A stretch of DNA of 64,000 bases from Escherichia coli (GCF_048403405.1 NZ_CP183129.1); one strand, 5' to 3'. Shown: positions 26,618 through 56,459, counted from the first letter of the stretch. Made by a program: numbers and translations. Notes: generated by a model from the letters alone, not told the origin.

Positions 26618-26716
26618 TGCCGGATGCGGCGTGAACGCCTTATCCGGCCTACAAAAATCTTGCCAATTCAATATATTGCAGGACCACGTAGGCCTGATAA
26701 GCGTAGCGCATCAGGC
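26618..26716. repeat. REP / BIME element (two inverted REP units)
   Basis: Units atgccggatgcggcgtgaacgccttatccggcctac and gtaggcctgataagcgtagcgcatcaggc match the E. coli REP consensus; lies between fepA and entD. Confidence 0.65.
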
Positions 26717-28597: not shown

Positions 28598-29115
28598 TTT
28601 TTCGTGGGATGAGCTAAGGCTTTCAGCTTTTTTAGATACATAAGCCGCGTTTCAAGAAATCGAACTTGCCTTTCAAGATCCTCAATGCGTCGGTCTTTTG
28701 ACAGCTCCAATGCTGATGCCGCTTTTTCTGGATCAACTGATATTGCAATGTTTCTTTTGGTGCCAATCTTGAGCGCGCGTAAACCAGCTTCTCCGCGCTC
28801 TTCATAGACCTTCAGCCACCTGGCTACAGAACCACTACCAGCAAGCATAAAGTGAGCAGCAGCCTGATTAAGGGACATGTGCTGCTCGATCACAGCTTTC
28901 ACGACCTTAATACGCAACTCTGGATCAGCACTAACGCCTTTAGGTTTGGGAATTAAACCTTTTTCTCCATGTTTTTCATAGAGGGCAACCCATGTCCTGA
29001 CCTGGGTTCGGGGGACACCAAAACGTGCCGAGATGATCCTGTAACCATCATCAGTTGTGAAGTAGTGATTCACGACTTCAAGGCGCTTTTCAAAAGGGTA
29101 TTTTGGCTTTGACAT
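28594..29115 (-). CDS. insJ: IS150 transposase OrfA (HTH)
   Basis: 173-aa ORF MSKPKYPFEKRLEVVNHYF... recognised as IS150 InsJ. Confidence 0.9.
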   Translation of the reverse strand: MSKPKYPFEKRLEVVNHYFTTDDGYRIISARFGVPRTQVRTWVALYEKHGEKGLIPKPKGVSADPELRIKVVKAVIEQHMSLNQAAAHFMLAGSGSVARWLKVYEERGEAGLRALKIGTKRNIAISVDPEKAASALELSKDRRIEDLERQVRFLETRLMYLKKLKALAHPTKK

Positions 29116-29526
29116 ATTAGGGGCTATTCCATTTCATCGTCCAACAAAATGGGTGCAGTACAGGGTTGATAGAAATATCTCCTGGGGCTTCATCTTTCCA
29201 GACCTCAGAGTAAACCTGAAACCGGAAAGCTTCAGGCACCCGCCGTTATCTTACCCTTCCTCAGCAAAATAGCTGTTTATTTATACAGTGAGTCCTGTTT
29301 CGGACTTCTCACTCCTAATTTGATCAACTGAAGCTGAACCCGTTTTTTTCTGCATGCCTCAATCGTCAAAATTCTTCGCCACCAGCCAGCTCTGCCATAA
29401 CTTGTCACATTGCAAAAGTAGCCAAATTGCTTCAGTCACCATCACCAAAAAAAAGAAACATTCCAGAACTTCCGCATCTCGCCCAGCCGCTCCGACTTCT
29501 ATACTGAATAGAAAACGCCAACATAA

Positions 29527-39798: not shown

Positions 39799-41170
39799 TT
39801 ATTGCTGCCAACCGCCACCAAGTGCGGTATATAAAGAAATTTCGTTAACCTGACGGGCATAATTCAGGTCAAGTAAAGTTTGTCGGGTTGCAAATAAAGA
39901 ACGTTCGGCATCCAGCACTTCCAGATAACTGACTGCGCCGTGCTGATATAATGCCCGCGCCCGTTGCAAAGTAATTTGCAGCGATGCCAGATAACGCTGC
40001 TGGGCGCTAATTTGATCGTTCAGGCTTTGACGTAATGCCAGCGCATCTGCCACTTCTTTAAAGGCATTCTGGATTTTCTGTTCATAATTCACCACCGACT
40101 GCTGCTGGCGAATTTCGGCGATATCCAGATTGGCCTGGTTGCGTCCGGCATTAAAAATGGGGATCTCAATTTTGGGAATAAAATTCCACATCCCGCTGCT
40201 GGCGTTAAATAAGGACGACAGATCGCTGCTGGCGGTCGATATTCCGCTGGTCAGACTGATAGACGGGAAAAATGCCGCGCGTGCAGCGCCAATATTGGCA
40301 TTAGCCGCCATCAACGCGTGTTCAGCTTCCATAATATCCGGGCGCTGCAATAAGATTTGCGACGACAAGCCCGCCGGTAATTTAACGCTTTGCAGGCTGT
40401 CGCTGTTTACTGTTTGCGCTTGCGGCAGCTTGCCGTAGCTTCCCAGCAACAGTTGCAATGCATTATTCGCCTGCGCCAGTTCCCCCTGACGTTTAGCGAT
40501 GTCGCTGCGGGTACTTTCTATCACCCCGCGAGCCTGTTCCAGCGCCAGAACATTGCTGCTACCGGTCAACAGTTGTTTTTCGACAAACGCATATGACTGC
40601 TGATAATTACGCAGCGTTTCTTCGGCTATTTGCAATTGCGCATACGCCAGTTGCTGATTGAAATAGCTTTGCGCGACATTAGAAACCAGCAGAATATGCA
40701 CCGCGCGCTGGGCTTCCTCAGTGGCTAAATAATTTTGGCGCTCGGCTTCGCTCATGTTCTTTAAGCGACCGAAAAAATCGAGATCAAAGCTGGCGTTAAG
40801 GCCGGTCGAAAACTCCCGTGTCGTGGCGGTATTCCCTTTAAGATTACCGCTCCAGCTGCCGCTGCCCTCGCCATTGAGCTGTGGGTAGCGGTCGGCATCG
40901 GTCAGACGATATTGCGCCCGTGCCTCCTGCACTTTCAGCGTCGCCATGCGCAAATCCCGGTTATTCACCAGCGCCTCGCTAATCAGCGTCTTCACCTGAT
41001 TATCAATAAAAAAGGTGCGCCAGCCCGCGTTCTGGTAGTTATCTGCTGCGTTAACCAGGCCGTTCTGGCTGAGTGAGAACTGCTTCGGTACGGGCATTGC
41101 CGGACGCTGATAATCCGGTGCCAATGAACAACCGGTTAGCGCAAGGGCCACACAAAATGGCAGAAGTTTA
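39799..41170 (-). CDS. cusC: outer-membrane factor of Cus efflux, 5' end interrupted by IS26
   Basis: Lipoprotein signal LLPFCVALALTGC is present, but the first few native codons are replaced: the reading frame runs into the IS26 terminus at 41171 and only a GTG inside IS26 could serve as start. Confidence 0.85.
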
Positions 41171-41990
41171 GGCACTGTTGCAAATAGTCGGTGGTGATAA
41201 ACTTATCATCCCCTTTTGCTGATGGAGCTGCACATGAACCCATTCAAAGGCCGGCATTTTCAGCGTGACATCATTCTGTGGGCCGTACGCTGGTACTGCA
41301 AATACGGCATCAGTTACCATGAGCTGCAGGAGATGCTGGCTGAACGCGGAGTGAATGTCGATCACTCCACGATTTACCGCTGGGTTCAGCGTTATGCGCC
41401 TGAAATGGAAAAACGGCTGCGCTGGTACTGGCGTAACCCTTCCGATCTTTGCCCGTGGCACATGGATGAAACCTACGTGAAGGTCAATGGCCGCTGGGCG
41501 TATCTGTACCGGGCCGTCGACAGCCGGGGCCGCACTGTCGATTTTTATCTCTCCTCCCGTCGTAACAGCAAAGCTGCATACCGGTTTCTGGGTAAAATCC
41601 TCAACAACGTGAAGAAGTGGCAGATCCCACGATTCATCAACACGGATAAAGCGCCCGCCTATGGTCGCGCGCTTGCTCTGCTCAAACGCGAAGGCCGGTG
41701 CCCGTCTGACGTTGAACACCGACAGATTAAGTACCGGAACAACGTGATTGAATGCGATCATGGCAAACTGAAACGGATAATCAACGCCACGCTGGGATTT
41801 AAATCCATGAAGACGGCTTACGCCACCATCAAAGGTATTGAGGTGATGCGTGCACTACGCAAAGGCCAGGCCTCAGCATTTTATTATGGTGATCCCCTGG
41901 GCGAAATGCGCCTGGTAAGCAGAGTTTTTGAAATGTAAGGCCTTTGAATAAGACAAAAGGCTGCCTCATCGCTAACTTTGCAACAGTGCC
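41171..41990 (+). mobile_element. IS26 (IS6 family), 820-bp copy 1
   Basis: Termini GGCACTGTTGCAAA ... TTTGCAACAGTGCC; internal 234-aa Tnp26. Confidence 0.95.
41234..41938 (+). CDS. tnpA: IS26 transposase Tnp26 (variant with His at residue 29)
   Basis: MNPFKGRHFQRDIILWAVRWYCKYGISY(H)ELQEM... recognised as the IS26 transposase. Confidence 0.95.
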   Translation: MNPFKGRHFQRDIILWAVRWYCKYGISYHELQEMLAERGVNVDHSTIYRWVQRYAPEMEKRLRWYWRNPSDLCPWHMDETYVKVNGRWAYLYRAVDSRGRTVDFYLSSRRNSKAAYRFLGKILNNVKKWQIPRFINTDKAPAYGRALALLKREGRCPSDVEHRQIKYRNNVIECDHGKLKRIINATLGFKSMKTAYATIKGIEVMRALRKGQASAFYYGDPLGEMRLVSRVFEM

Positions 41991-42439
41991 AATTTTACGC
42001 CGTCGGCGGTACGCAGCCAGCGCGGGGATTTGAGTCCTTCCGTGAAATTCCAGACCAGCTCACACAGCAGCCCGGTCAGGGTTTGCTCCATTTTTGGTTC
42101 CGCCGGACGTTCCAGCAGAAGCTGGAGTAGTGCGAGGCAGTATTCGCACAAGGAATCAGGTTCGGAAATAAAGTGCTCTGGTGTGGCGGGAAGGGTATCC
42201 ACGGTCAGGCTTTCGGTAAGATGCGGTGGGATGGGGTCGTGTAGTGTGGGTTGCAGTAGCGCAAGAGCCGCGTGAAGCCGCCCGCAGAGCGCCAGTCGTA
42301 GCGCTGGATCGTCGGTTTCAATCAGGGTTTCGGCAAAGCGGGCGCAGTAGTCAGCAAGGACAGTGAAATCCGTGGTGGCATTGAAGGGGACGGTCAATAG
42401 ATCGAGTAAATCGCTGTCAGTGGTGAGGATTGTAGCCAT
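41972..42439 (-). CDS. hypothetical acidic protein; 3' end runs into IS26 (probably truncated)
   Basis: 155-aa ORF with a GGAGG Shine-Dalgarno upstream of the ATG at 42439; its last codons and stop lie inside the IS26 inverted repeat. No family recognised. Confidence 0.45.
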   Translation of the reverse strand: MATILTTDSDLLDLLTVPFNATTDFTVLADYCARFAETLIETDDPALRLALCGRLHAALALLQPTLHDPIPPHLTESLTVDTLPATPEHFISEPDSLCEYCLALLQLLLERPAEPKMEQTLTGLLCELVWNFTEGLKSPRWLRTADGVKLALLQS

Positions 42440-42785
42440 AGGGCAACCTCCGATAAGTGGGTGTTCAAGCCACCACCGGAGAGGCTAATCTCGCGGGTGG
42501 TGGAACCGGGCAGGGTTAGCCTTACCAGCCTTATCGGACACTGGCGCGTCTTGCGACGCCCCCGCCCGGCCCACCATTGAGATGTAACCGTGCGAACAAC
42601 ACAAAAAAAGACGCTGGCGCGTCATGTGTCGCCGATAAGATTTCTTCAGGAGGCTAATCCCGACGCCTGATTTTGCAGGCGCGGGAGAAAGATACTGCGA
42701 TTGGTCATGAGTGGCAAGGGCTACATCATGTTTACCGACATCTCACGCAAAAATACCCTGATTATTAATAGCGAAAATCAGTTTC

Positions 42786-45700
42786 TTATTTTGGCGGTAG
42801 CTTTTTGCGGTTCTTTGCCAACTGGAATCCTTCAGGTAACGGTTTGAATTTATCGCCGCCTTTAGGCCAGCGTTTTGCCCTGCTCTGAAATGCCCTTAAC
42901 GAGTCGATATCCAGCGTTGCAGCGACCACAAAGTCATTATCACCGCCCTTCACACGAGCAATATCACGCATAAAGGGTTCTTTTGCCGGGGAACGTACGC
43001 GACTATCGCCGTATTTTCGGTTATTCACTAAAATAGTATAGGCATGAATATCCAGCGCTGCTGATTCAATCAACGATGCAAACGTATCTAGATCTTTATT
43101 CCAGCTCAATACCATTAATGCATCGAGTGCGCCCTGAAAACGGATCCTCGCTTTACTATTCTGGAGTTCAGAGCAAATCATAACGCCAAAATTGACGCCG
43201 TGATGAATATATACCGGCTTACGTTGTTTAACATTAAGTGTCGAATCCCAAGACTTACCATAAGTTGAAAATAATGCCTCATCTTCACCTACGGCGGGTT
43301 CCAGCTTGGGTTGCCATATTTTGACACTCGCTGGATAGCCGAGTCTGTTATCTGAAAGGACAAGTACGGCCTCACTCTTCAGTTGATTATCGTCTAAGTG
43401 GCGGTATTCTGTTCCCGCAATTAGACTGATACCCGCCGAACTCAAACGATCAGCAATACTGTTAACCCAGCGTAACGGGATTGAAAGCTCAGGGAATAAA
43501 ACATAATCAGGTTTAGGAGATAGTTTCAATGTTGCATTAACCAGTTCAGAAATCCGCTGGTACCTTGAACGGGACAAGTTAGATTTATTGCAGGCCATTT
43601 TAGCCCAGTCGTCCTCCTCTGTTTTAATGCTGGTTAGCGCAACGACAACTTTATGTTTCCTGTCTGTGCCAATATGAATGAATTTCTTAGGCCGAGCTTT
43701 TTTTGTCGCTTCATCTGAGTCCTGCTCCGATGCTAGCAACGTCGGTTTGATCCATACTCCGCGTAATGCTTGAGTATATTTTGCCCAAATGGTGGACGGT
43801 CTCTCATCTGGTTTTTTGTCGGATGTGGAGGGTAATCCAACACATTCGGGGGCCAGTTCTGATATTTCAGCGGGTGTTAAAGGACGTGTAGGGAAAATGT
43901 AAGGTAGGTAACTTTCGTTTTTACGATTTCCTTTAGCCACTTTTTCCAGTCGGGTATTCTTGGTTGATTTCAAAAATAGCTTAATAACGTCAATATCAAT
44001 AAGCGATGAGTCGCTCATTAATTTCAGTATTTTAACTTCTTTTTTACTATCACGCTGATTAACAAGTTTTTCTGCCGACTGACTCTTTACGATCTGTTTA
44101 TAAGGTTCCTTTGCTAAATCAGCTCGAGCTACCAATGGCGCTTTTAAATAAAAATCTGCTGAATCAAAGCGAAGATCCAGTAAATCCTTTAGATTCGTCA
44201 GACTTTGTGAAATATGATTAAAAAATGTATCCGCAAGGCACTCTTCTTTCTTTGAACGTTTATCAAGAAATAATCTGTCAGGACTGTAATATCGTGTCGC
44301 TGCATCAACAAATAGCCAGCTTAATGTGCCTTTTATACAGCGCCAAAGATCATTTACTGCTCGAGTTTTGCAACCATTTATATTCACTTCCTTACCTGAA
44401 GTAATCACCGATGCCAACAGGTTGATGGATTCGTAAGCTTTAAGTACAATTTTTTCCGCGTGCTGCCATTCATTCATACTGATAGCAAAGCCAAGCAGCC
44501 TTGGCAGATAACTAAAATGTGCAAATAGATTATCAGCCCTAAGAATATGGTTGTAGGCAAACTGATAAAACTCTTCCCGCTGTTCTTTCCATTCACTTGG
44601 AGGCAGATCTCGTGCCAGTGTTTCAACGTAGCGTAATTGCAGTGACCAGCCCAAACGACGAATGGTTAATCCATCCGCACGGCGCAGAGTATCGGCATTT
44701 TCACCTACACTACCGGCAGCGGAAAGGACTTTAGCTGCGGTGGAGTGTTCCAGTTGATCCGGTGAAGGCATCAAGCGGTGTTCACTAGAAAGCTCGTAGA
44801 TCTCCTTTTCGATACTGTCGAGCAGGTCTATTCCAGCCCTCCCTTGAAGCACGAAAAGTTTTTGCTTATCGGATTGTAACTGGATGGTGGTCTTACCCTG
44901 GAAATGCTCGCCCTGCTGTATTTGCCATATTTGTTTTTGCTCGTTTTTCAAATAAACGCAATCATTGCCAAGCCTATCTTGCAGCAATAACATAAATTCG
45001 TGATTATTAGTAATTGTCCCTGTATCGCGTATTACAAGGAACATATCATCGACATAACGACCGTAGTGAATTGGTGATAGTTTTTCAATGACTAATTTAT
45101 CCCAATGGTGTAGCAATATATTTGAAATGATCCGACTGGCTGTTAATCCAATGACCAGACCACCATTAATAACAGGTGTTTTGTACGCTATTTTCTTTCC
45201 AAATGCCGCTGCGCCGTCAGACCAGTGCTTTAAGAATACTGCTAACTGTGCAGTAAACGCTTTTTCATCCTCAGTCAGTTTTATGTTTAGTGTGTTATAG
45301 AGATCATCAGAGGTTATAGCCAGTGGATCAATAAAATGATAGTAACTTTTTAAATCCAGTGAGGCGGCGATAATGTCACGATCTTTTTCCAACTCGTCAC
45401 GTATAGCTTTTAAGCCATCACCACGCCATTTTTGGTAGGGCTGGAAGTAGGGGCTAAAAGAACCCACGGCACTGATATGGAATGGATTATCCTGCTCATT
45501 GCTAAATAATTCATCATTACGAATACGCTTTAGCCGCGCGCCATAGCAACAGTTATCTAAGCTGGCATCAAATTTATGCCCGACCATGTTAATCCATAGT
45601 GCAGAGATAATGTGACTATCAACCGGGAAGTCACCAATAATACGAAACTCTGGTATCAGATCAAAATTATTAAATAAATGGTCGGCTGCTCGTTTAGGAT

Positions 45701-45995
45701 TAGAAAAGTGGACGTGTCCATTTTGGGATTCATGTTTTTTCTTTGTGGTTAATTTTTTCGGTAACAAACGAAATTTGCCAATCAACTTCTTATTGCTACT
45801 GAATCCATCTTCGCTCTGCAAAAGATCTAAGAGTTTTTGCAGGTTTTCAAGTAATTCCTGCTCATACTCGGCAAATTTGATAGCAACAGGAAATGTATTC
45901 TCAAAGAAGCTATCGGCTTTTGCTTTCCGGTAAGCGACCAGAAGGTCTTCAATCGTCAGATCATCCCAGCCAGTGAAAATTGCCTGATATGTCAT
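42786..45995 (-). CDS. reverse transcriptase-nitrilase fusion protein (DRT type 1 / UG1-like defence-associated RT)
   Basis: 1069-aa ORF with AAGGA Shine-Dalgarno. RT motif A ASLDLKSYYHFID, motif B GGLVIGLTASRIISNILL, motif C RYVDDMFLV (nt 45033-45059); C-terminal CN-hydrolase domain with FPELS (Glu836), VKIWQPK and GVMICSEL (Cys941, nt 43173-43175). Confidence 0.85.
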   Translation of the reverse strand: MTYQAIFTGWDDLTIEDLLVAYRKAKADSFFENTFPVAIKFAEYEQELLENLQKLLDLLQSEDGFSSNKKLIGKFRLLPKKLTTKKKHESQNGHVHFSNPKRAADHLFNNFDLIPEFRIIGDFPVDSHIISALWINMVGHKFDASLDNCCYGARLKRIRNDELFSNEQDNPFHISAVGSFSPYFQPYQKWRGDGLKAIRDELEKDRDIIAASLDLKSYYHFIDPLAITSDDLYNTLNIKLTEDEKAFTAQLAVFLKHWSDGAAAFGKKIAYKTPVINGGLVIGLTASRIISNILLHHWDKLVIEKLSPIHYGRYVDDMFLVIRDTGTITNNHEFMLLLQDRLGNDCVYLKNEQKQIWQIQQGEHFQGKTTIQLQSDKQKLFVLQGRAGIDLLDSIEKEIYELSSEHRLMPSPDQLEHSTAAKVLSAAGSVGENADTLRRADGLTIRRLGWSLQLRYVETLARDLPPSEWKEQREEFYQFAYNHILRADNLFAHFSYLPRLLGFAISMNEWQHAEKIVLKAYESINLLASVITSGKEVNINGCKTRAVNDLWRCIKGTLSWLFVDAATRYYSPDRLFLDKRSKKEECLADTFFNHISQSLTNLKDLLDLRFDSADFYLKAPLVARADLAKEPYKQIVKSQSAEKLVNQRDSKKEVKILKLMSDSSLIDIDVIKLFLKSTKNTRLEKVAKGNRKNESYLPYIFPTRPLTPAEISELAPECVGLPSTSDKKPDERPSTIWAKYTQALRGVWIKPTLLASEQDSDEATKKARPKKFIHIGTDRKHKVVVALTSIKTEEDDWAKMACNKSNLSRSRYQRISELVNATLKLSPKPDYVLFPELSIPLRWVNSIADRLSSAGISLIAGTEYRHLDDNQLKSEAVLVLSDNRLGYPASVKIWQPKLEPAVGEDEALFSTYGKSWDSTLNVKQRKPVYIHHGVNFGVMICSELQNSKARIRFQGALDALMVLSWNKDLDTFASLIESAALDIHAYTILVNNRKYGDSRVRSPAKEPFMRDIARVKGGDNDFVVAATLDIDSLRAFQSRAKRWPKGGDKFKPLPEGFQLAKNRKKLPPK

Positions 45996-46289
45996 GCGTT
46001 ATCGTCCTTAGATTACAGTCTGTACAGAATTAGCCAGCCGTTTCATGCCCGAAGGGGGGCTCTTGACACCAGTAATCCATCAGTGAGGCTGGCAATAATT
46101 TTGATTTGTATCCATGTTACACGCTCCCCGCAACCAGTCCGAGCATATATTTGTCACATTTTTCCCGAAAGTGATTAAGTTTGAATTTTTTGTTTAATGT
46201 CGATTTTTAGTCGACAAAATGAGGAATAAGTAAACTATTTCTTGCTGTGGCGTATCCCTGAATCTACACTGGTTTAAATATTTGTACTA

Positions 46290-47093
46290 ATGTCTATTCA
46301 GAGGCGACAGTTGCCAAACTATCTAAACTGGCTGATGCAGCACACGCTACCCGGCCAGGTGCTGCTCCAGTCATGGCTTACCCGCAACGGCATAGATCGT
46401 AAGCTCTCTTATCTCTATGTGAAGAATGGCTGGCTCAGGCGGATCGCTCACGGCGTATACTGCCGGACGGGCCGTGAGCCGGATTGGGTAGACGCGGTTT
46501 ACTGCCTTCAAACACAGTGGGAAAAGCCTGTTCGGGTGGCGGGGCTAACCAGCCTTGCGCTTCAGGGCCATGCGCACTATACCGAACCGGGTAAGCCGCA
46601 GGTCTGGCTCGCGCTTCCGGCTTACGTTAAGCTGCCGGGATGGTTTGCTGCCTTCGAACAATCTGCAACATTTATCACGCTGTATACATCGGGGCTTACC
46701 GTAGATGTAACGTCATTGACTACGGAACTGAAAATTGGCGACCGCCAGTTAGCAGGCAGTGCCCCGGAACTGGCCGCGTATGAGATCGCCTGCGGCGTTC
46801 CTTCGTTGATATCGTTCGAACATGCCGATGCTCTGTTTCAGGGGATGAATCTTCTCAGCCCACGCAAATTGCAGGCACTGCTTCGCGCCAGCCATTCGGT
46901 TAAAACCAACCGGGTGATGCTTTACCTTGCCCGGCGTAATGGACACCCTTATTTTCAGTATATTGATCAAAGCGGTATAGAAACAGGTACGGGAAAGCGG
47001 CAAATCATACCCGGCGGCTGGCTGGAGCCGGATTATCAAATTACTGTTCCACGCGCATTTAAACCGGAAGGAGTCGAAGATGGATCTGCGTGA
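46290..47093 (+). CDS. AbiEi-like antitoxin / transcriptional regulator (type IV TA)
   Basis: 267-aa ORF immediately upstream of, and overlapping by 14 bp, an AbiEii-like nucleotidyltransferase gene; N-terminal wHTH-like region with an R-x-x-x-G-V-Y motif. No clear Shine-Dalgarno, so the start is uncertain. Confidence 0.65.
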   Translation: MSIQRRQLPNYLNWLMQHTLPGQVLLQSWLTRNGIDRKLSYLYVKNGWLRRIAHGVYCRTGREPDWVDAVYCLQTQWEKPVRVAGLTSLALQGHAHYTEPGKPQVWLALPAYVKLPGWFAAFEQSATFITLYTSGLTVDVTSLTTELKIGDRQLAGSAPELAAYEIACGVPSLISFEHADALFQGMNLLSPRKLQALLRASHSVKTNRVMLYLARRNGHPYFQYIDQSGIETGTGKRQIIPGGWLEPDYQITVPRAFKPEGVEDGSA

Positions 47094-48000
47094 TAGCTAT
47101 GCCCGGCAGGTCAAACTGTTGATGGCCGCTCTGCCGTATGTGGCGAAGGAGTCCTGTTTCGCGTTGAAAGGCGGCACCGCAATCAATTTGTTTGTGCAGG
47201 ATTTTCCCCGTCTGTCGGTGGATATTGATCTGGCGTACAAGAGCTTTGCGGATCGCGATACTGATTTGGCGGCTATCAACGACGCTTTGAAGAGGATTAC
47301 TGCATCGCTGAACGGCAGACCGGGGATCACCGCGATTCGGCAGGAAAATAAAGCGGATGAAAAGCGCATCATTGTGAATACCGCTGATGCAAAGATTAAG
47401 ATCGAGGTTAGCCCGGTCTGGCGCGGGCTGTTGTTGCCTCCGGCAGAAATGCCTGTGTGCGAACGTGTGGAAATGGAGTATGGCTTCACCACCATGAGTG
47501 TCGTCTCGCTGGCGGATCTTTATGGCGGTAAAATCTGCGCTGCGCTTGATCGTCAGCACCCGCGCGATCTGTTTGATGTGCTGAATATGCTGGAGAAACC
47601 GGGACTGATGCGGGAGATCTTTGACGGTTTTCTTTGTTATCTGGCAGGCCATCCCCGCCCCATCGCCGAGTTGCTGGCTCCAAACTGGGATACAGAGCGG
47701 ATCGCCACGTTGTACGCGCAGGAATTTTCGGGGATGACTCAGCAGGAAACGTCGCTGGAATCGCTGCTGTCAGTAACGACTTTGCTGCCGCAGGCGTTGA
47801 AGTCACATCTTACGGATCTGGATCGCGAGTTCTTGCTCAGTTTTAAGCAAAACAGCCCTGACTGGTCGCGGTATCGCTATCCTGAAATTCAGCATCTTCC
47901 GGCTATTCGCTGGAAGCAACGTAATCTGGCGGTGCTGAAAGATAAAAATCCGGCGAAGTATGTGGCGGCGGTGAATAAGCTAGAGAGGGTGCTGGCGTAA
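47080..48000 (+). CDS. AbiEii-like nucleotidyltransferase toxin (DUF1814 family)
   Basis: 306-aa ORF with GGAG Shine-Dalgarno; N-terminal nucleotidyltransferase motif LKGGTAINLF...LSVDIDLAY typical of AbiEii/AbiGii toxins. Confidence 0.8.
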   Translation: MDLRDSYARQVKLLMAALPYVAKESCFALKGGTAINLFVQDFPRLSVDIDLAYKSFADRDTDLAAINDALKRITASLNGRPGITAIRQENKADEKRIIVNTADAKIKIEVSPVWRGLLLPPAEMPVCERVEMEYGFTTMSVVSLADLYGGKICAALDRQHPRDLFDVLNMLEKPGLMREIFDGFLCYLAGHPRPIAELLAPNWDTERIATLYAQEFSGMTQQETSLESLLSVTTLLPQALKSHLTDLDREFLLSFKQNSPDWSRYRYPEIQHLPAIRWKQRNLAVLKDKNPAKYVAAVNKLERVLA

Positions 48001-48364
48001 TCAATAGACCAGCATTAATCACGGATGATTACCAATCAGACAGATATGGTTAAATCATCGAATTCATAATTAATACTTTTTCTTACGCCGCTGAACAGCT
48101 TGAAAAGGATACATATTTTAAATATCAGTGAAGTGGACAGTTTATTGCCGTTATTAATAGAGATGGAGGAATAAATACGCGTATTCTACTATTGCAACAA
48201 AAACAACGATGATGATCAGTTTTCATAATGAAGTAACCTGACAGATATAAAAATGTTGATTGAGGCTCAATGCCCGGATGAAGGTTGTCGAGGGAGCCAG
48301 GTGGTTTTTTCTTTTGGGTGATCTCCATTGCTGGATAGTCCCCTCTTTCTCGCTCAAAGCAGAC

Positions 48365-48689
48365 TGTACTGCACCCATTTTGTTGGACGATGAAATGGAA
48401 TAGCCCCTAATATGTCAAAGCCAAAATACCCTTTTGAAAAGCGCCTTGAAGTCGTGAATCACTACTTCACAACTGATGATGGTTACAGGATCATCTCGGC
48501 ACGTTTTGGTGTCCCCCGAACCCAGGTCAGGACATGGGTTGCCCTCTATGAAAAACATGGAGAAAAAGGTTTAATTCCCAAACCTAAAGGCGTTAGTGCT
48601 GATCCAGAGTTGCGTATTAAGGTCGTGAAAGCTGTGATCGAGCAGCACATGTCCCTTAATCAGGCTGCTGCTCACTTTATGCTTGCTGG
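48365..48689 (+). mobile_element. IS150 5' fragment (325 bp), truncated by IS26
   Basis: Begins with the IS150 terminal repeat TGTACTGCACCCATTTTG and is identical in protein sequence to the start of insJ in the full copy at 27720-29162; ends abruptly at the IS26 terminus. Confidence 0.9.
48412..48689 (+). pseudogene. insJ: insJ fragment (first ~92 codons of IS150 OrfA)
   Basis: MSKPKYPFEKR...AAAHFMLAG, then the frame reads into IS26. Confidence 0.85.
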
Positions 48690-49509
48690 GGCACTGTTGC
48701 AAATAGTCGGTGGTGATAAACTTATCATCCCCTTTTGCTGATGGAGCTGCACATGAACCCATTCAAAGGCCGGCATTTTCAGCGTGACATCATTCTGTGG
48801 GCCGTACGCTGGTACTGCAAATACGGCATCAGTTACCGTGAGCTGCAGGAGATGCTGGCTGAACGCGGAGTGAATGTCGATCACTCCACGATTTACCGCT
48901 GGGTTCAGCGTTATGCGCCTGAAATGGAAAAACGGCTGCGCTGGTACTGGCGTAACCCTTCCGATCTTTGCCCGTGGCACATGGATGAAACCTACGTGAA
49001 GGTCAATGGCCGCTGGGCGTATCTGTACCGGGCCGTCGACAGCCGGGGCCGCACTGTCGATTTTTATCTCTCCTCCCGTCGTAACAGCAAAGCTGCATAC
49101 CGGTTTCTGGGTAAAATCCTCAACAACGTGAAGAAGTGGCAGATCCCACGATTCATCAACACGGATAAAGCGCCCGCCTATGGTCGCGCGCTTGCTCTGC
49201 TCAAACGCGAAGGCCGGTGCCCGTCTGACGTTGAACACCGACAGATTAAGTACCGGAACAACGTGATTGAATGCGATCATGGCAAACTGAAACGGATAAT
49301 CAACGCCACGCTGGGATTTAAATCCATGAAGACGGCTTACGCCACCATCAAAGGTATTGAGGTGATGCGTGCACTACGCAAAGGCCAGGCCTCAGCATTT
49401 TATTATGGTGATCCCCTGGGCGAAATGCGCCTGGTAAGCAGAGTTTTTGAAATGTAAGGCCTTTGAATAAGACAAAAGGCTGCCTCATCGCTAACTTTGC
49501 AACAGTGCC
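48690..49509 (+). mobile_element. IS26 (IS6 family), 820-bp copy 2
   Basis: Same termini as copy 1, same orientation; one nucleotide differs from copy 1 (G at 48838 versus A at 41319). Confidence 0.95.
48753..49457 (+). CDS. tnpA: IS26 transposase Tnp26
   Basis: 234-aa ORF with ...GISYRELQEM..., the form recalled as canonical for Tnp26. Confidence 0.95.
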   Translation: MNPFKGRHFQRDIILWAVRWYCKYGISYRELQEMLAERGVNVDHSTIYRWVQRYAPEMEKRLRWYWRNPSDLCPWHMDETYVKVNGRWAYLYRAVDSRGRTVDFYLSSRRNSKAAYRFLGKILNNVKKWQIPRFINTDKAPAYGRALALLKREGRCPSDVEHRQIKYRNNVIECDHGKLKRIINATLGFKSMKTAYATIKGIEVMRALRKGQASAFYYGDPLGEMRLVSRVFEM

Positions 49510-51543
49510 AAACCGTTAGCGATTATGGTTCCGGCGTGGAATGAAACGGGCGTCATCGGCAATATGGCCGAGCTGGCGGCGACCACGCTCGACTATGAAA
49601 ACTATCATATCTTTGTTGGCACCTACCCCAACGACCCCGATACACAGCGTGATGTTGACGAAGTGTGCGCTCGCTTCCCGAACGTGCATAAGGTAGTCTG
49701 CGCGCGTCCTGGCCCCACCAGCAAAGCCGACTGCCTGAACAACGTGCTGGACGCCATCACCCAGTTTGAGCGTAGCGCCAATTTCGCTTTTGCTGGTTTT
49801 ATTCTGCATGACGCCGAAGACGTAATTTCACCGATGGAATTGCGTCTGTTCAACTATCTGGTCGAGCGTAAAGATCTGATTCAGATCCCGGTGTATCCGT
49901 TCGAACGCGAATGGACGCACTTCACCAGCATGACTTACATTGATGAGTTTTCAGAACTGCATGGCAAAGATGTTCCGGTGCGTGAAGCCCTCGCCGGACA
50001 AGTGCCCAGCGCAGGCGTCGGTACCTGTTTCAGCCGCCGCGCCGTGACCGCACTGTTAGCTGACGGTGACGGTATTGCTTTCGACGTGCAGAGTCTTACT
50101 GAAGATTACGACATTGGTTTCCGCCTGAAAGAAAAAGGTATGACGGAAATTTTTGTCCGTTTTCCGGTGGTGGACGAAGCCAAAGAACGCGAGCAGCGTA
50201 AATTTTTACAGCACGCGCGGACGTCAAACATGATCTGCATGCGCGAATATTTCCCTGATACCTTTTCGACTGCGGTTCGACAAAAATCTCGCTGGATCAT
50301 CGGCATTGTTTTCCAGGGCTTTAAAACCCACAAATGGACCTCCAGCCTGACGCTGAACTACTTTCTCTGGCGCGACCGCAAAGGGGCAATCAGTAACTTT
50401 GTCAGCTTTCTCGCGATGCTGGTGATGATCCAGCTTCTGCTGTTACTGGCGTATGAAAGTTTGTGGCCCGATGCCTGGCATTTCCTTTCTATTTTCAGCG
50501 GCAGCGCATGGTTAATGACCCTGCTGTGGCTAAACTTTGGTTTGATGGTTAACCGCATCGTGCAGCGGGTGATTTTTGTCACTGGCTACTACGGTCTGAC
50601 GCAGGGGCTGCTATCTGTCCTGCGTCTTTTCTGGGGCAACCTGATTAACTTCATGGCCAACTGGCGCGCGTTAAAACAGGTACTTCAACACGGCGATCCA
50701 CGTCGTGTCGCGTGGGATAAAACAACGCATGACTTCCCCAGCGTGACTGGCGATACCCGCTCGTTGCGCCCGTTAGGCCAAATTCTGCTGGAAAATCAGG
50801 TCATCACTGAAGAACAACTCGATACAGCACTGCGTAATCGCGTCGAAGGTCTACGCCTGGGCGGTTCAATGCTGATGCAGGGGCTGATTAGCGCCGAACA
50901 GCTGGCACAGGCGCTGGCAGAGCAAAACGGCGTGGCGTGGGAATCCATCGACGCCTGGCAGATCCCGTCCTCGCTGATTGCCGAAATGCCGGCCTCCGTG
51001 GCGCTGCATTATGCAGTGCTGCCGCTGCGTCTGGAAAATGATGAGTTAATTGTCGGCAGTGAAGATGGTATTGACCCGGTTTCGCTGGCGGCCCTGACGC
51101 GTAAAGTCGGACGCAAAGTGCGTTACGTCATTGTTCTGCGGGGACAAATTGTCACGGGGTTACGTCACTGGTATGCACGCCGACGCGGTCACGATCCGCG
51201 GGCAATGTTGTACAATGCGATTCAGCATCAGTGGCTCACGGAACAGCAGGCCGGTGAAATCTGGCGGCAATATGTGCCGCATCAGTTCCTGTTCGCCGAA
51301 ATACTGACCACGCTCGGTCATATTAATCGTTCAGCAATTAACGTGTTGTTATTGCGCCATGAACGCAGTTCTCTGCCGCTCGGCAAGTTTTTGGTCACCG
51401 AAGGCGTTATCAGCCAGGAAACGTTGGATCGCGTCCTGACAATTCAACGCGAATTACAAGTTTCGATGCAATCACTATTACTCAAAGCAGGTTTAAACAC
51501 AGAACAGGTTGCGCAACTGGAGTCCGAAAATGAAGGAGAATAA
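49510..51543 (+). pseudogene. nfrB: phage N4 adsorption protein B (glycosyltransferase family 2), 5'-truncated by IS26
   Basis: The frame is open from the IS26 junction; the first Met gives 672 aa against a recalled native length of about 745 aa, so N-terminal membrane segments and the promoter are missing. Confidence 0.85.
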
Positions 51544-56382: not shown

Positions 56383-56459
56383 TGGCGCGCCCTGCAGGAT
56401 TCGAACCTGCGGCCCACGACTTAGAAGGTCGTTGCTCTATCCAACTGAGCTAAGGGCGC
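56383..56459 (-). tRNA. argU: tRNA-Arg (anticodon UCU)
   Basis: The reverse complement reads GCGCCCTTAGCTCAGTTGGATAGAGCAACGACCTTCTAAGTCGTGGGCCGCAGGTTCGAATCCTGCAGGGCGCGCCA: cloverleaf, UCU anticodon, 3' CCA. Confidence 0.9.

Follow-up and report, generated by a model that had tools for sequence, protein, structure and literature searches.

A gene of 1069 codons in a 64,000-nucleotide stretch of Escherichia coli DNA (GCF_048403405.1, NZ_CP183129.1; the whole stretch is called the window in the following) codes for a reverse transcriptase (RT) which is fused to a nitrilase, or carbon-nitrogen (C-N) hydrolase, domain. The locus raises the question of which kind of RT this is, how it might act, and whether it can act alone. 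The initial annotation of the window, made from the sequence without database searches, took the protein to be a defence RT of the UG1 class (DRT type 1). By profile score it belongs to another described group of the class 3 UG/Abi RTs, UG5-large, and we consider it probable that the gene is a single-polypeptide anti-phage system of that group, in which protein-primed, untemplated DNA synthesis would gate a nitrilase effector and lead to abortive infection.

The Gene and Its Product

The open reading frame (ORF) begins with ATG and is the only long ORF in its place, as seen from the ORF list and the translation.

42786-45995, minus strand: complete RT-nitrilase gene, 1069 amino acids and stop codon (ORF list, PADLOC, RefSeq annotation)

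In the translated protein the RT motif A string ASLDLKSYYHFID is found at residues 211-223, the motif B string GGLVIGLTASRIISNILL at residues 278-295 and RYVDDMFLV at residues 313-321 (nucleotides 45033-45059), with YVDD itself at residues 314-317 (nucleotides 45045-45056). The nitrilase motifs are FPELS with Glu836, VKIWQPK at residues 891-897 and MICSEL with Cys941. The location and size of the ORF and all six motif strings are where the initial annotation had put them. The protein is identical to RefSeq WP_000222103.1, and the cluster of proteins with 100% identity has 1122 member sequences. Most RefSeq records of this protein carry the label "hypothetical protein".

The G+C content of the ORF is 41.8% compared to 51.3% for the window, and the sliding profile falls to 0.40-0.43 exactly across the RT-nitrilase gene; the AT-richness which had been judged by eye is thereby confirmed. 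Inspection of the sequence revealed an AAGGA ribosome-binding site 9 nucleotides before the ATG. A scan for promoters and terminators gave nothing specific to the RT gene, and promoter-like sites were no more numerous than in shuffled sequence.

Assignment to UG5-large

The PADLOC profile RT_UG5-nitrilase (PDLC03780) matches the protein over practically its entire length, aligning residues 1-1068 with positions 9-901 of the 907 in the profile, with 1034 bits and an E-value of 0. A second RT_UG5-nitrilase model (PDLC02995) covers residues 18-410 only (188 bits), and the profile RTasNitrilase covers residues 783-1058 (1.9e-43). The best other RT groups in PADLOC are RT_UG5_small with 133 bits (2.8e-39, residues 15-413) and Drt1a, which matches in part only, with 89 bits for residues 151-409 and 34 bits for residues 940-1045. 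A full-length match to RT_UG5-nitrilase set against a weak one to Drt1a therefore assigns the protein to UG5-large and not to UG1/DRT1, so that the class proposed in the initial annotation has to be given up, and with it the statement that the subtype could not be settled from sequence alone. The RT-nitrilase fusion, regarded there as the hallmark of UG1, is common to UG1, UG5-large and UG29, and it is by their C-N hydrolase domains that UG1, UG5 and UG29 are united in class 3 of the UG/Abi RTs (Mestre 2022, PMC9226505).

The window protein has the C-N hydrolase domain with its catalytic residues fused C-terminally in one polypeptide, and it has the size (about 1000 amino acids) and the extension between RT and hydrolase which go with UG5-large; in the structure model this extension, residues 385-770 approximately, is helical. 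A downstream transmembrane (TM) protein is an optional feature of the group and is absent from the window. Such a protein (cluster 85 or 1858) is found downstream in 31 of 299 UG5-large members and is thus not obligatory (PMC9226505). Judged from its sequence the protein is a new member of the described group, and its subfamily is 26-30% identical to the group's tested members.

The Pfam search suggested in the initial annotation was carried out. No Pfam-A family matched the whole protein at E <= 0.001, and neither PF00078 (RVT_1) nor PF00795 (CN_hydrolase) appeared. Taken alone this result would be the refutation which the initial annotation had named. The conclusion that the protein is neither an RT nor a nitrilase was considered and rejected, because defence-specific profiles, family profile and structure model are in agreement with one another. 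What the initial annotation described, a defence-type RT fused to a C-N hydrolase with YVDD and the Glu-Lys-Cys residues intact, is borne out by the PADLOC profiles, the alignment and the structure model. Since neither RVT_1 nor CN_hydrolase detects the protein, Pfam-based screens for RTs and nitrilases will miss this subfamily. NCBIfam gave no match above its cut-offs, only sub-threshold matches to retron, Drt3a and Drt2 models. It should be noted that the family is already known and that PADLOC, a standard tool for defence annotation, would label the gene automatically; the find itself is therefore not surprising.

Three related systems for which experiments have been published are used in the following. 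The "RT-nitrilase + 1TM" system of E. coli E101 was found in a P4-satellite hotspot; it defends, and it is active only at room temperature (Rousset 2022, PMC9122126). Its TM protein is reported as required in the summary given by Mestre et al. (PMC9226505). DRT11 is a UG5-large RT-nitrilase of Sinorhizobium meliloti RMO17 (WP_040120558.1), described in a preprint of December 2025 (10.64898/2025.12.16.694600). Its defence needs both the DD residues of the RT and the Cys of the nitrilase and involves no TM protein; RNA sequencing and an upstream deletion showed that a non-coding RNA is neither detected nor needed; it works alone in a heterologous strain and protects at low multiplicity of infection only (10.64898/2025.12.16.694600). 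DRT1 forms filaments driven by a DNA adduct, covers its nitrilase site with a C-terminal lid which is domain-swapped, requires the Dda helicase of phage T4 and defends without a partner (PMC13275509). DNA synthesis by DRT1 and by the purified proteins "DRT5L" and "DRT5S" proceeds without a template, and its product is covalently attached (PMC13275509). According to the supplement of that paper "DRT5L" is the E101 protein.

Domains and Conserved Residues

Homologues of the window protein fall into 2013 clusters at 50% identity when E <= 0.001 is used, and into 856 clusters at E <= 1e-30; most are full-length, with about 1000-1100 amino acids. The family alignment (A1) was made from 41 homologues which are 30-76% identical to the window protein. 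Together with profiles and a structure model it gives the following division of the protein.

44844-45995, minus strand: RT domain, about residues 1-384; fingers with AYRKAKAD, D214, YVDD 314-317, thumb-like helix (conservation, profile, Foldseek)
44766-44789, minus strand: motif [S/A/T]-S404-E-x-R-x-x-P, residues 403-410, directly after the thumb helix (S404 invariant)
43686-44843, minus strand: all-alpha-helical middle domain, about residues 385-770 (DSSP on the AlphaFold2 model)
42876-43685, minus strand: nitrilase domain, about residues 771-1040, with E836, K897, E904, C941 and C-x-E943 (PADLOC, Foldseek, conservation)
42825-42869, minus strand: C-terminal tail W1043..K1051-P-L-P1054-E-G-F1057 (phmmer alignment to 9yfd, conservation)

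Invariant in all 41 sequences are A21, K24, K26, D28, D214 of motif A, Y314, D316 and D317 in the RT part, E836, K897, E904 and C941, which make up the tetrad of the nitrilase superfamily, and K1051 and P1054 in the C-terminus, where P1052 and G1056 are nearly invariant. The catalytic lysine of VKIWQPK is thus K897; K892 is not conserved. The spacing of E904 after K897 is presumably that of known amidases.

The AlphaFold2 model, built on the family alignment, has a mean pLDDT of 86.4 and a pTM of 0.89 and consists of an RT domain, a helical region (about residues 385-770) and an alpha/beta C-terminal domain. When the model was compared to the PDB with Foldseek, the C-terminal part matched nitrilase-superfamily amidases such as 6ypa, 2w1v and 2plq with probability 1.00 (E about 1e-7 to 1e-8, TM-score on the target 0.55-0.66), and the N-terminal half matched AbiA, DRT9, UG15 and the RTs of diversity-generating retroelements (DGRs). 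The DRT1 structure 9yfd was not among the Foldseek matches in the PDB copy used (to 2026-04-08). With the single sequence as query 9yfd was matched only in the last 118 residues, the C-terminus of the nitrilase (E 1e-6), and a profile search was therefore needed. With the family profile 9yfd is the best match in the PDB (E 5.7e-25), in both the RT part (9yfd residues 167-366) and the nitrilase part, followed by Drt3a, retron, DGR and UG15 RTs.

Two regions had no recognizable motif in the initial annotation. The approximately 200 N-terminal residues are, from the alignment, the RT fingers; collinearity with the E101 protein starts at residue 13. The approximately 400 residues in the middle are predicted by the model to be an all-helical domain: DSSP finds helices only, apart from a short hairpin at residues 536-546, and the pLDDT is mostly 80-94. 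DRT1 carries an alpha-helical repeat domain in the same position, between RT and nitrilase (PMC13275509). The C-terminal tail aligns with the domain-swapped lid of DRT1, Y1215..K1219-T-Q-P-A-G-F1225 (phmmer to 9yfd), and the DRT1 lid mutants K1219A and A1223F have lost defence (PMC13275509).

The serine at position 404 is invariant across the 41 sequences, and its motif has counterparts, which read SSAFRFLP for the E101 protein and SSDFLLLP for a UG5-small protein. The priming site of DRT1, S402 in GTSSIPE, falls in the same short segment, 3-4 MAFFT columns away from S404 in an alignment which used an error-prone, machine-read DRT1 sequence and which is suggestive without being decisive. A 98-amino acid fragment of the priming region gave only noise against the PDB. 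Because of the distance of 3-4 columns, and because the DRT1 authors do not regard the serine as conserved in the other class 3 RTs, we offer Ser404 only as a candidate for the priming residue.

Partner Genes and Template RNA

A protein corresponding to the TM partner of E101 is not encoded in the window (the best tblastn match had E 4.4 and lay elsewhere). The only sizeable ORF downstream of the RT-nitrilase gene, 155 amino acids at 41972-42439, has no predicted TM segment and no match in any of the profile libraries. In the loci of homologues a hydropathy scan predicted a TM segment in 3 of the 24 genes immediately downstream of the RT-nitrilase.

The close neighbours were compared for six homologues which are about 70% identical (Pleionea, Vibrio, Citrobacter, Marinobacter, Salmonella and Alloalcanivorax). 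Their immediate upstream gene varies (KwaB-like, Fic, AAA_13 ATPase, SMC-like ATPase), and the distance from its end to the RT start ranges from a 55-nucleotide gap to a 4-nucleotide overlap. The downstream neighbours are mutually unrelated, and in one case a convergent gene begins 4 nucleotides after the RT stop codon. The varied neighbours and the tight spacing leave no conserved partner and no conserved non-coding flank which could hold a template RNA.

Rfam was searched in evalue mode from 41000 to 49600 and in gathering mode over the whole window. Near the gene only three matches were found, and no intron, retron msr or DGR RNA. The absence of an Rfam template RNA and of a conserved non-coding flank is indirect support for protein-primed, template-independent synthesis by the window protein.

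42493-42581, minus strand: C4 antisense RNA (Rfam)
42604-42682, minus strand: isrK (Rfam)
42643-42695, minus strand: c4 a1/b1 target element (Rfam)

C4 (71 bits) and isrK (69 bits), both above the gathering score, lie directly downstream of the RT-nitrilase stop codon; the c4 a1/b1 element with 44 bits is just under its gathering score of 46.7. C4 antisense RNA and isrK are known immunity RNAs of phages and satellites. The RNAs look like remnants of the P4/P1-type immunity region of a decayed tRNA-Thr island and do not appear to be linked to the RT. The three matches overlap a short ORF annotated "ash family protein". Other RNAs in the window are ordinary for E. coli: a sok antitoxin RNA at 29086-29241 (minus strand, 64 bits), probably of a chromosomal hok/sok, the small RNA ES036 at 26654-26695 (plus strand, 42 bits) and one tRNA at 56386-56459 (minus strand).

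Homologues and Their Gene Neighbourhoods

Homologues which are about 70% identical over 1064-1080 amino acids (P0005-P0120) occur in Enterobacteriaceae, Vibrio, Marinobacter, Alteromonas, Idiomarina, Microbulbifer, Azoarcus and Jeongeupia. An identity of about 70% with such a horizontal range (for example the loci L011-L020 and L040) is unusually tight conservation for a defence gene. On plasmids, matches were confined to the pSymA copies of S. meliloti, two E. coli records and distant ones in Leptospira, and the phage collection contained no protein-level match to the RT-nitrilase.

The survey of loci included 76 genome loci with homologues, and 61 of these had at least 4 kb of upstream sequence and were informative. 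In 29 of the 61 the RT-nitrilase gene is co-oriented with type I restriction-modification (RM) or BREX genes. The RM/methyltransferase type accounts for 22 loci, and here the RT-nitrilase gene mostly follows the RM genes and is commonly the last gene. They include L003, L006-L011, L015, L016, L020, L027, L030, L040, L041, L082 and L084. Many of the RM arrays begin with a small HTH_26 gene which may be the RptR-type repressor of PMC12255303, and the slot between hsdS and the RT gene is variable, being occupied by Kiwa-like KwaA/KwaB, by a 337-amino acid gene and Fic, or by an AAA_13 ATPase.

The other type consists of seven loci (L044, L047, L056, L060, L064, L070 and L083) in which a homologue, 29-33% identical, is found inside a type 1 BREX locus. 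In six of them the RT-nitrilase gene lies between two pglX ORFs which match the N- and C-terminal halves of PglX. The order in Advenella mandrilli (L044, 6205-12844; PADLOC) is BrxA, BrxB, BrxC, PglX N-half, RT-nitrilase, PglX C-half, SIR2-like, PglZ, BrxL. A SIR2-like gene is sometimes found beside the RT-nitrilase gene in BREX loci. It is known that type I RM and BREX loci generally have other defence genes embedded in them (10.1101/2024.01.29.577857; PMC12255303); in the UG/Abi and BREX surveys which could be searched we found no mention of it for UG5. The RM, BREX and AbiE context supports a role in defence, and a functional link to methylation-based immunity has a low probability.

The Salmonella loci (L008 and L009) are helpful for understanding how the E. 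coli locus arose. Their order is divergent AbiEi, then hsdR-hsdM-hsdS, KwaA-like, KwaB-like and RT-nitrilase. The corresponding features of the window are:

45996-46289, minus strand: upstream intergenic region common to the RT-nitrilase gene and the divergent abiEi, with an apparent deletion joint at about 46056-46100 (sequence, Salmonella alignment)
46290-47093, plus strand: AbiEi (PADLOC 2.5e-79, RefSeq)
47080-48000, plus strand: AbiEii (PADLOC 4.4e-116, RefSeq)

Positions 46263-46624 of the window are 87% identical to the AbiEi end of the Salmonella locus, and 46340-46100 are 67% identical to L008 285-523, which lies ahead of hsdR. From 46056 through the whole RT gene the window is 74% identical to the Salmonella sequence starting with the last 50 nucleotides of the KwaB-like gene; 46056-45982 aligns with L008 7938-8014, i.e. 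the KwaB-like end and the RT start. The simplest reading of these alignments is that about 7.4 kb with the type I RM and Kiwa-like genes were deleted from the E. coli island, with the joint at about 46056-46100, so that the RT-nitrilase gene would now stand directly behind the upstream region of the former operon.

AbiEi and AbiEii make up a known toxin-antitoxin system of abortive infection, which shares the island with the RT-nitrilase but is separate from it. AbiE was considered as an obligatory partner of the RT-nitrilase and rejected; it is adjacent in only three of the homologue contexts surveyed.

A Model for the RT-nitrilase and Its Alternatives

The model which we consider probable proposes that the RT domain (D214, YVDD 314-317) works without an RNA template and primes on one of its own side chains. 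The product would be a short, semi-random single-stranded DNA which stays covalently attached to the protein, with Ser404 as the candidate priming residue. The DNA adduct would drive oligomerisation via the nitrilase domains, and in the resting assembly the C-terminal tail (K1051..P1054-x-G-F) would cover the E836-K897-E904-C941 site and keep the nitrilase silent. A phage replication factor would disturb the adduct or the assembly and so set the nitrilase free. Its target would be an essential molecule with an amide or nitrile group, whose hydrolysis would leave the infected cell unable to support phage growth. The data themselves show the family, the domain folds, the intact and invariant catalytic residues, the conserved lid motif, the lack of a conserved partner gene and of flanking room for a template RNA, and the setting in a defence island. 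The mechanism, and with it the priming residue, the formation of filaments, the trigger and the substrate in the window protein, we infer from UG5-large relatives (26-30% identical) and from the more distant DRT1.

Several observations are at variance with the model or weaken it. The UG5-large proteins which have been tested share only 26-30% identity with the window protein, and the tested E. coli member, E101, needs a TM partner according to the summary by Mestre et al., a partner which is absent here. Filaments and a trigger have been described for DRT1 only, and the single sequence matches DRT1 just in the C-terminus of the nitrilase. S404 lies near the S402 of DRT1 but not in the same alignment column, and according to the authors of the DRT1 study class 3 RTs other than DRT1 do not conserve the priming serine (PMC13275509). 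In the closest relatives type I RM and Kiwa-like genes stand ahead of the RT-nitrilase gene; in E. coli these seem to have been lost, and if they are needed the gene could be inert. Finally, our literature search found no paper which mentions WP_000222103.

The last but one of these points can be developed into an alternative, namely that the gene is an inactive orphan, a conserved but non-defensive remnant whose partner, the TM protein or the upstream genes, was lost as the island decayed. The reported need of the E101 system for its TM protein, for which there is no gene in the window, fits with this, and so does the likeness of the E. coli locus to the Salmonella layout minus about 7.4 kb with hsdRMS and the KwaA/KwaB-like genes; the island is moreover degraded, with integrase pseudogenes and a partial ykgR. 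We nevertheless regard an inactive remnant as unlikely: the ORF and all its catalytic residues are intact, all but two of the 259 complete E. coli genomes which carry the locus have it at 99% identity or more, DRT11 and DRT1 both defend without any partner, and the genes adjacent to the homologues of about 70% identity differ so that no single partner is kept. The protein might instead be a UG1/DRT1 member working exactly as DRT1 does, with priming of the Ser402 type, filaments and a trigger of the Dda type. In its favour are the common order of the domains, the shared C-terminal lid motif and the profile search, in which DRT1 comes out as the nearest of the solved structures. Against this stand the Drt1a score of 89 bits over residues 151-409 only, to be compared with 1034 bits over the full length for RT_UG5-nitrilase, the size of 1069 amino acids where UG1 proteins have 1200-1300 (Mestre 2022, PMC9226505), and the GTSSIPE motif, which is not present as such; we find this alternative highly improbable. 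A templated RT of the retron, group II intron or DGR type, copying a nearby non-coding RNA, would be suggested by the two structured RNAs just downstream of the gene and by the weak palm similarity to retron models, which is below threshold (32 bits for NCBIfam retron_St85_RT, cut-off 235). These RNAs are however the C4 and isrK immunity RNAs, the maps of the homologues have no conserved non-coding flank, Rfam gave no intron, retron msr or DGR RNA family, and DRT11 needs no non-coding RNA as seen by RNA sequencing and upstream deletion (10.64898/2025.12.16.694600), which leaves this type of RT with next to no probability.

The gene neighbourhoods of the homologues call for one more alternative, in which the protein is coupled to methylation-based immunity as a back-up or guard which fires when phage anti-restriction disables type I RM or BREX. 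PrrC with EcoprrI and PARIS with Ocr are analogous guards. The 22 of 61 informative loci with a co-oriented type I RM/methyltransferase locus, where the RT-nitrilase gene is mostly downstream and commonly last, and the seven inside BREX, six of them with the gene between the two ORFs of a split pglX, speak for such a coupling. Unrelated defence genes are on the other hand embedded in type I RM and BREX loci generally (10.1101/2024.01.29.577857; PMC12255303), such a neighbour is missing from about half of the loci, and DRT11 and the E. coli locus are without RM or BREX, DRT11 working alone in a heterologous strain. For the window protein such a coupling is in our view very unlikely. The corresponding proposal for the subfamily, which is about 70% identical across many Gammaproteobacteria, is that these proteins are guards which sense phage interference with RM or BREX, or the DNA ends which RM or BREX produce, via protein-linked DNA primed on Ser404 and then unleash the nitrilase on an essential metabolite; we rate it as quite unlikely. 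If it were true, the loss of its RM neighbours and the move by IS26 would have made the E. coli copy a naturally uncoupled guard, which could help to find the substrate of the nitrilase in a native, tractable host.

Returning to the single-polypeptide UG5-large system, the window protein is a native E. coli representative of a UG5-large subfamily which is without a partner gene and unusually well conserved, and this makes it convenient for asking what the nitrilase substrate and the trigger of class 3 RTs are.

The Island and Its Probable Move by IS26

The RT-nitrilase gene and the AbiE genes are found in a 6.7-kb piece of an island between two copies of IS26, as the initial annotation had observed for the RT-nitrilase gene.

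41171-41990, plus strand: left IS26, 820 bp, terminal inverted repeats GGCACTGTTGCAAA (NCBIfam IS6-family transposase, repeat search, blastn)
48690-49509, plus strand: right IS26, 820 bp, abutting a 5'-truncated nfrB (NCBIfam, repeat search, blastn)

The two copies are in direct orientation and differ by one base, and no matching 8-bp target duplications are found at the outer flanks of the pair. They lie between cusC and the 5'-truncated nfrB; the left copy abuts the start of cusC and clips the last codons of the 155-amino acid ORF. The piece between them spans from the end of a 156-amino acid ORF into the gene for a LysR-family regulator which follows a partial ykgR.

Among 5426 complete E. 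coli genomes there are 259 which have the 4.6-kb locus at a coverage of at least 80%, 257 of them with an identity of at least 99%. In strain TUM14771 the order by tRNA-Thr is integrase pseudogene, 156-amino acid ORF, "ash" ORF, RT-nitrilase, divergent AbiEi/AbiEii and partial ykgR; the normal residence of the gene is a decayed island beside tRNA-Thr. A search of the 5426 complete genomes for the junction of cusC, IS26 and island found no case of it. The interval between cusC and nfrB was compared in L087 (NZ_CP103479.1, 3703500-3726000). In close relatives whose flanks are 100% identical, strain 4621 among them, this interval is occupied by 19.6 kb with cusR, cusS, a vgrG/Rhs/PAAR cluster and ISAs1. 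The IS26-island-IS26 block has also removed approximately the first 67 codons of nfrB, which is annotated in RefSeq beside "bacteriophage adsorption protein NfrA".

This looks like a recent IS26-mediated transfer of a defence cassette, RT-nitrilase and AbiE, into the cus locus, accompanied by an adjacent deletion. Loss of copper and silver sensing and loss of NfrB function are likely consequences. IS26 is best known for moving resistance genes; here it seems to have carried a phage-defence cassette with two systems to a new chromosomal site, at the cost of cusRS, the vgrG/Rhs cluster and the 5' end of nfrB.

A stretch of the chromosome is repeated at 100% identity in a record of E. coli MS 69-1, "plasmid unnamed3" (L002, NZ_CP146678.1, 64,057 bp). 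The stretch takes in the RT-nitrilase island and continues through pao and ecp; adjoining it in the record, which is annotated as a plasmid, are all the structural genes of a tailed phage. The record could represent an artefact of the assembly or a hybrid molecule which has been excised or packaged.

Comparison with Known Systems

DRT11 belongs to the same group as the window protein and shares with it the end-to-end arrangement of RT, connector and nitrilase as well as YVDD and the Lys/Cys/Glu site. A TM partner and a non-coding RNA are absent in both cases, and both genes adjoin an AbiEii-type gene in a variable island. The two proteins are 29.8% identical when residues 13-1067 of the window protein are aligned to pSymA 109347-112340 (tblastn). 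They differ in size (1005 amino acids for DRT11, 1069 for the window protein) and in their hosts and phages, and it is DRT11 for which defence has been assayed.

The E101 protein is likewise a UG5 RT with a C-terminal nitrilase; it is collinear with the window protein from the N-terminus and has the SS-x-x-R-x-L-P motif. It comes from the same species and has a similar association with P4-like elements, seen for the window in the C4/isrK remnants and in other genomes as the integrase pseudogene by tRNA-Thr. The identity is 26% over the first 400 amino acids. The E101 system, whose name in DefenseFinder we take to be Rst_RT-nitrilase-Tm, has a single-pass TM partner of 229 amino acids, whereas the window is without such a gene. 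With the TM gene absent and an RT only 26% identical to that of E101, the window does not have the two-gene make-up described by Rousset in 2022.

DRT1 of Klebsiella pneumoniae (UG1, 9YFD) is also a class 3 UG/Abi RT-nitrilase with a helical domain in between, and it shares with the window protein the catalytic tetrad and the C-terminal K..P-x-G-F lid motif. It belongs to a different UG group (Drt1a gives 89 bits on the window protein) and is longer, 1229 against 1069 amino acids. The context of its Ser402, read from the machine-read DRT1 sequence, is not matched column for column in the window protein. The UG5-small systems have a related RT (RT_UG5_small, 2.8e-39) and the SSDF..LP motif in common with the window protein, but their RT and nitrilase are encoded in separate ORFs; the fusion of the two in the window protein therefore makes it the "large" variant of UG5. 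Taken together the comparison yields concrete sites in the window protein: Ser404 for the putative priming, K1051 and P1054 for the lid, and E836, K897, E904 and C941 for the tetrad.

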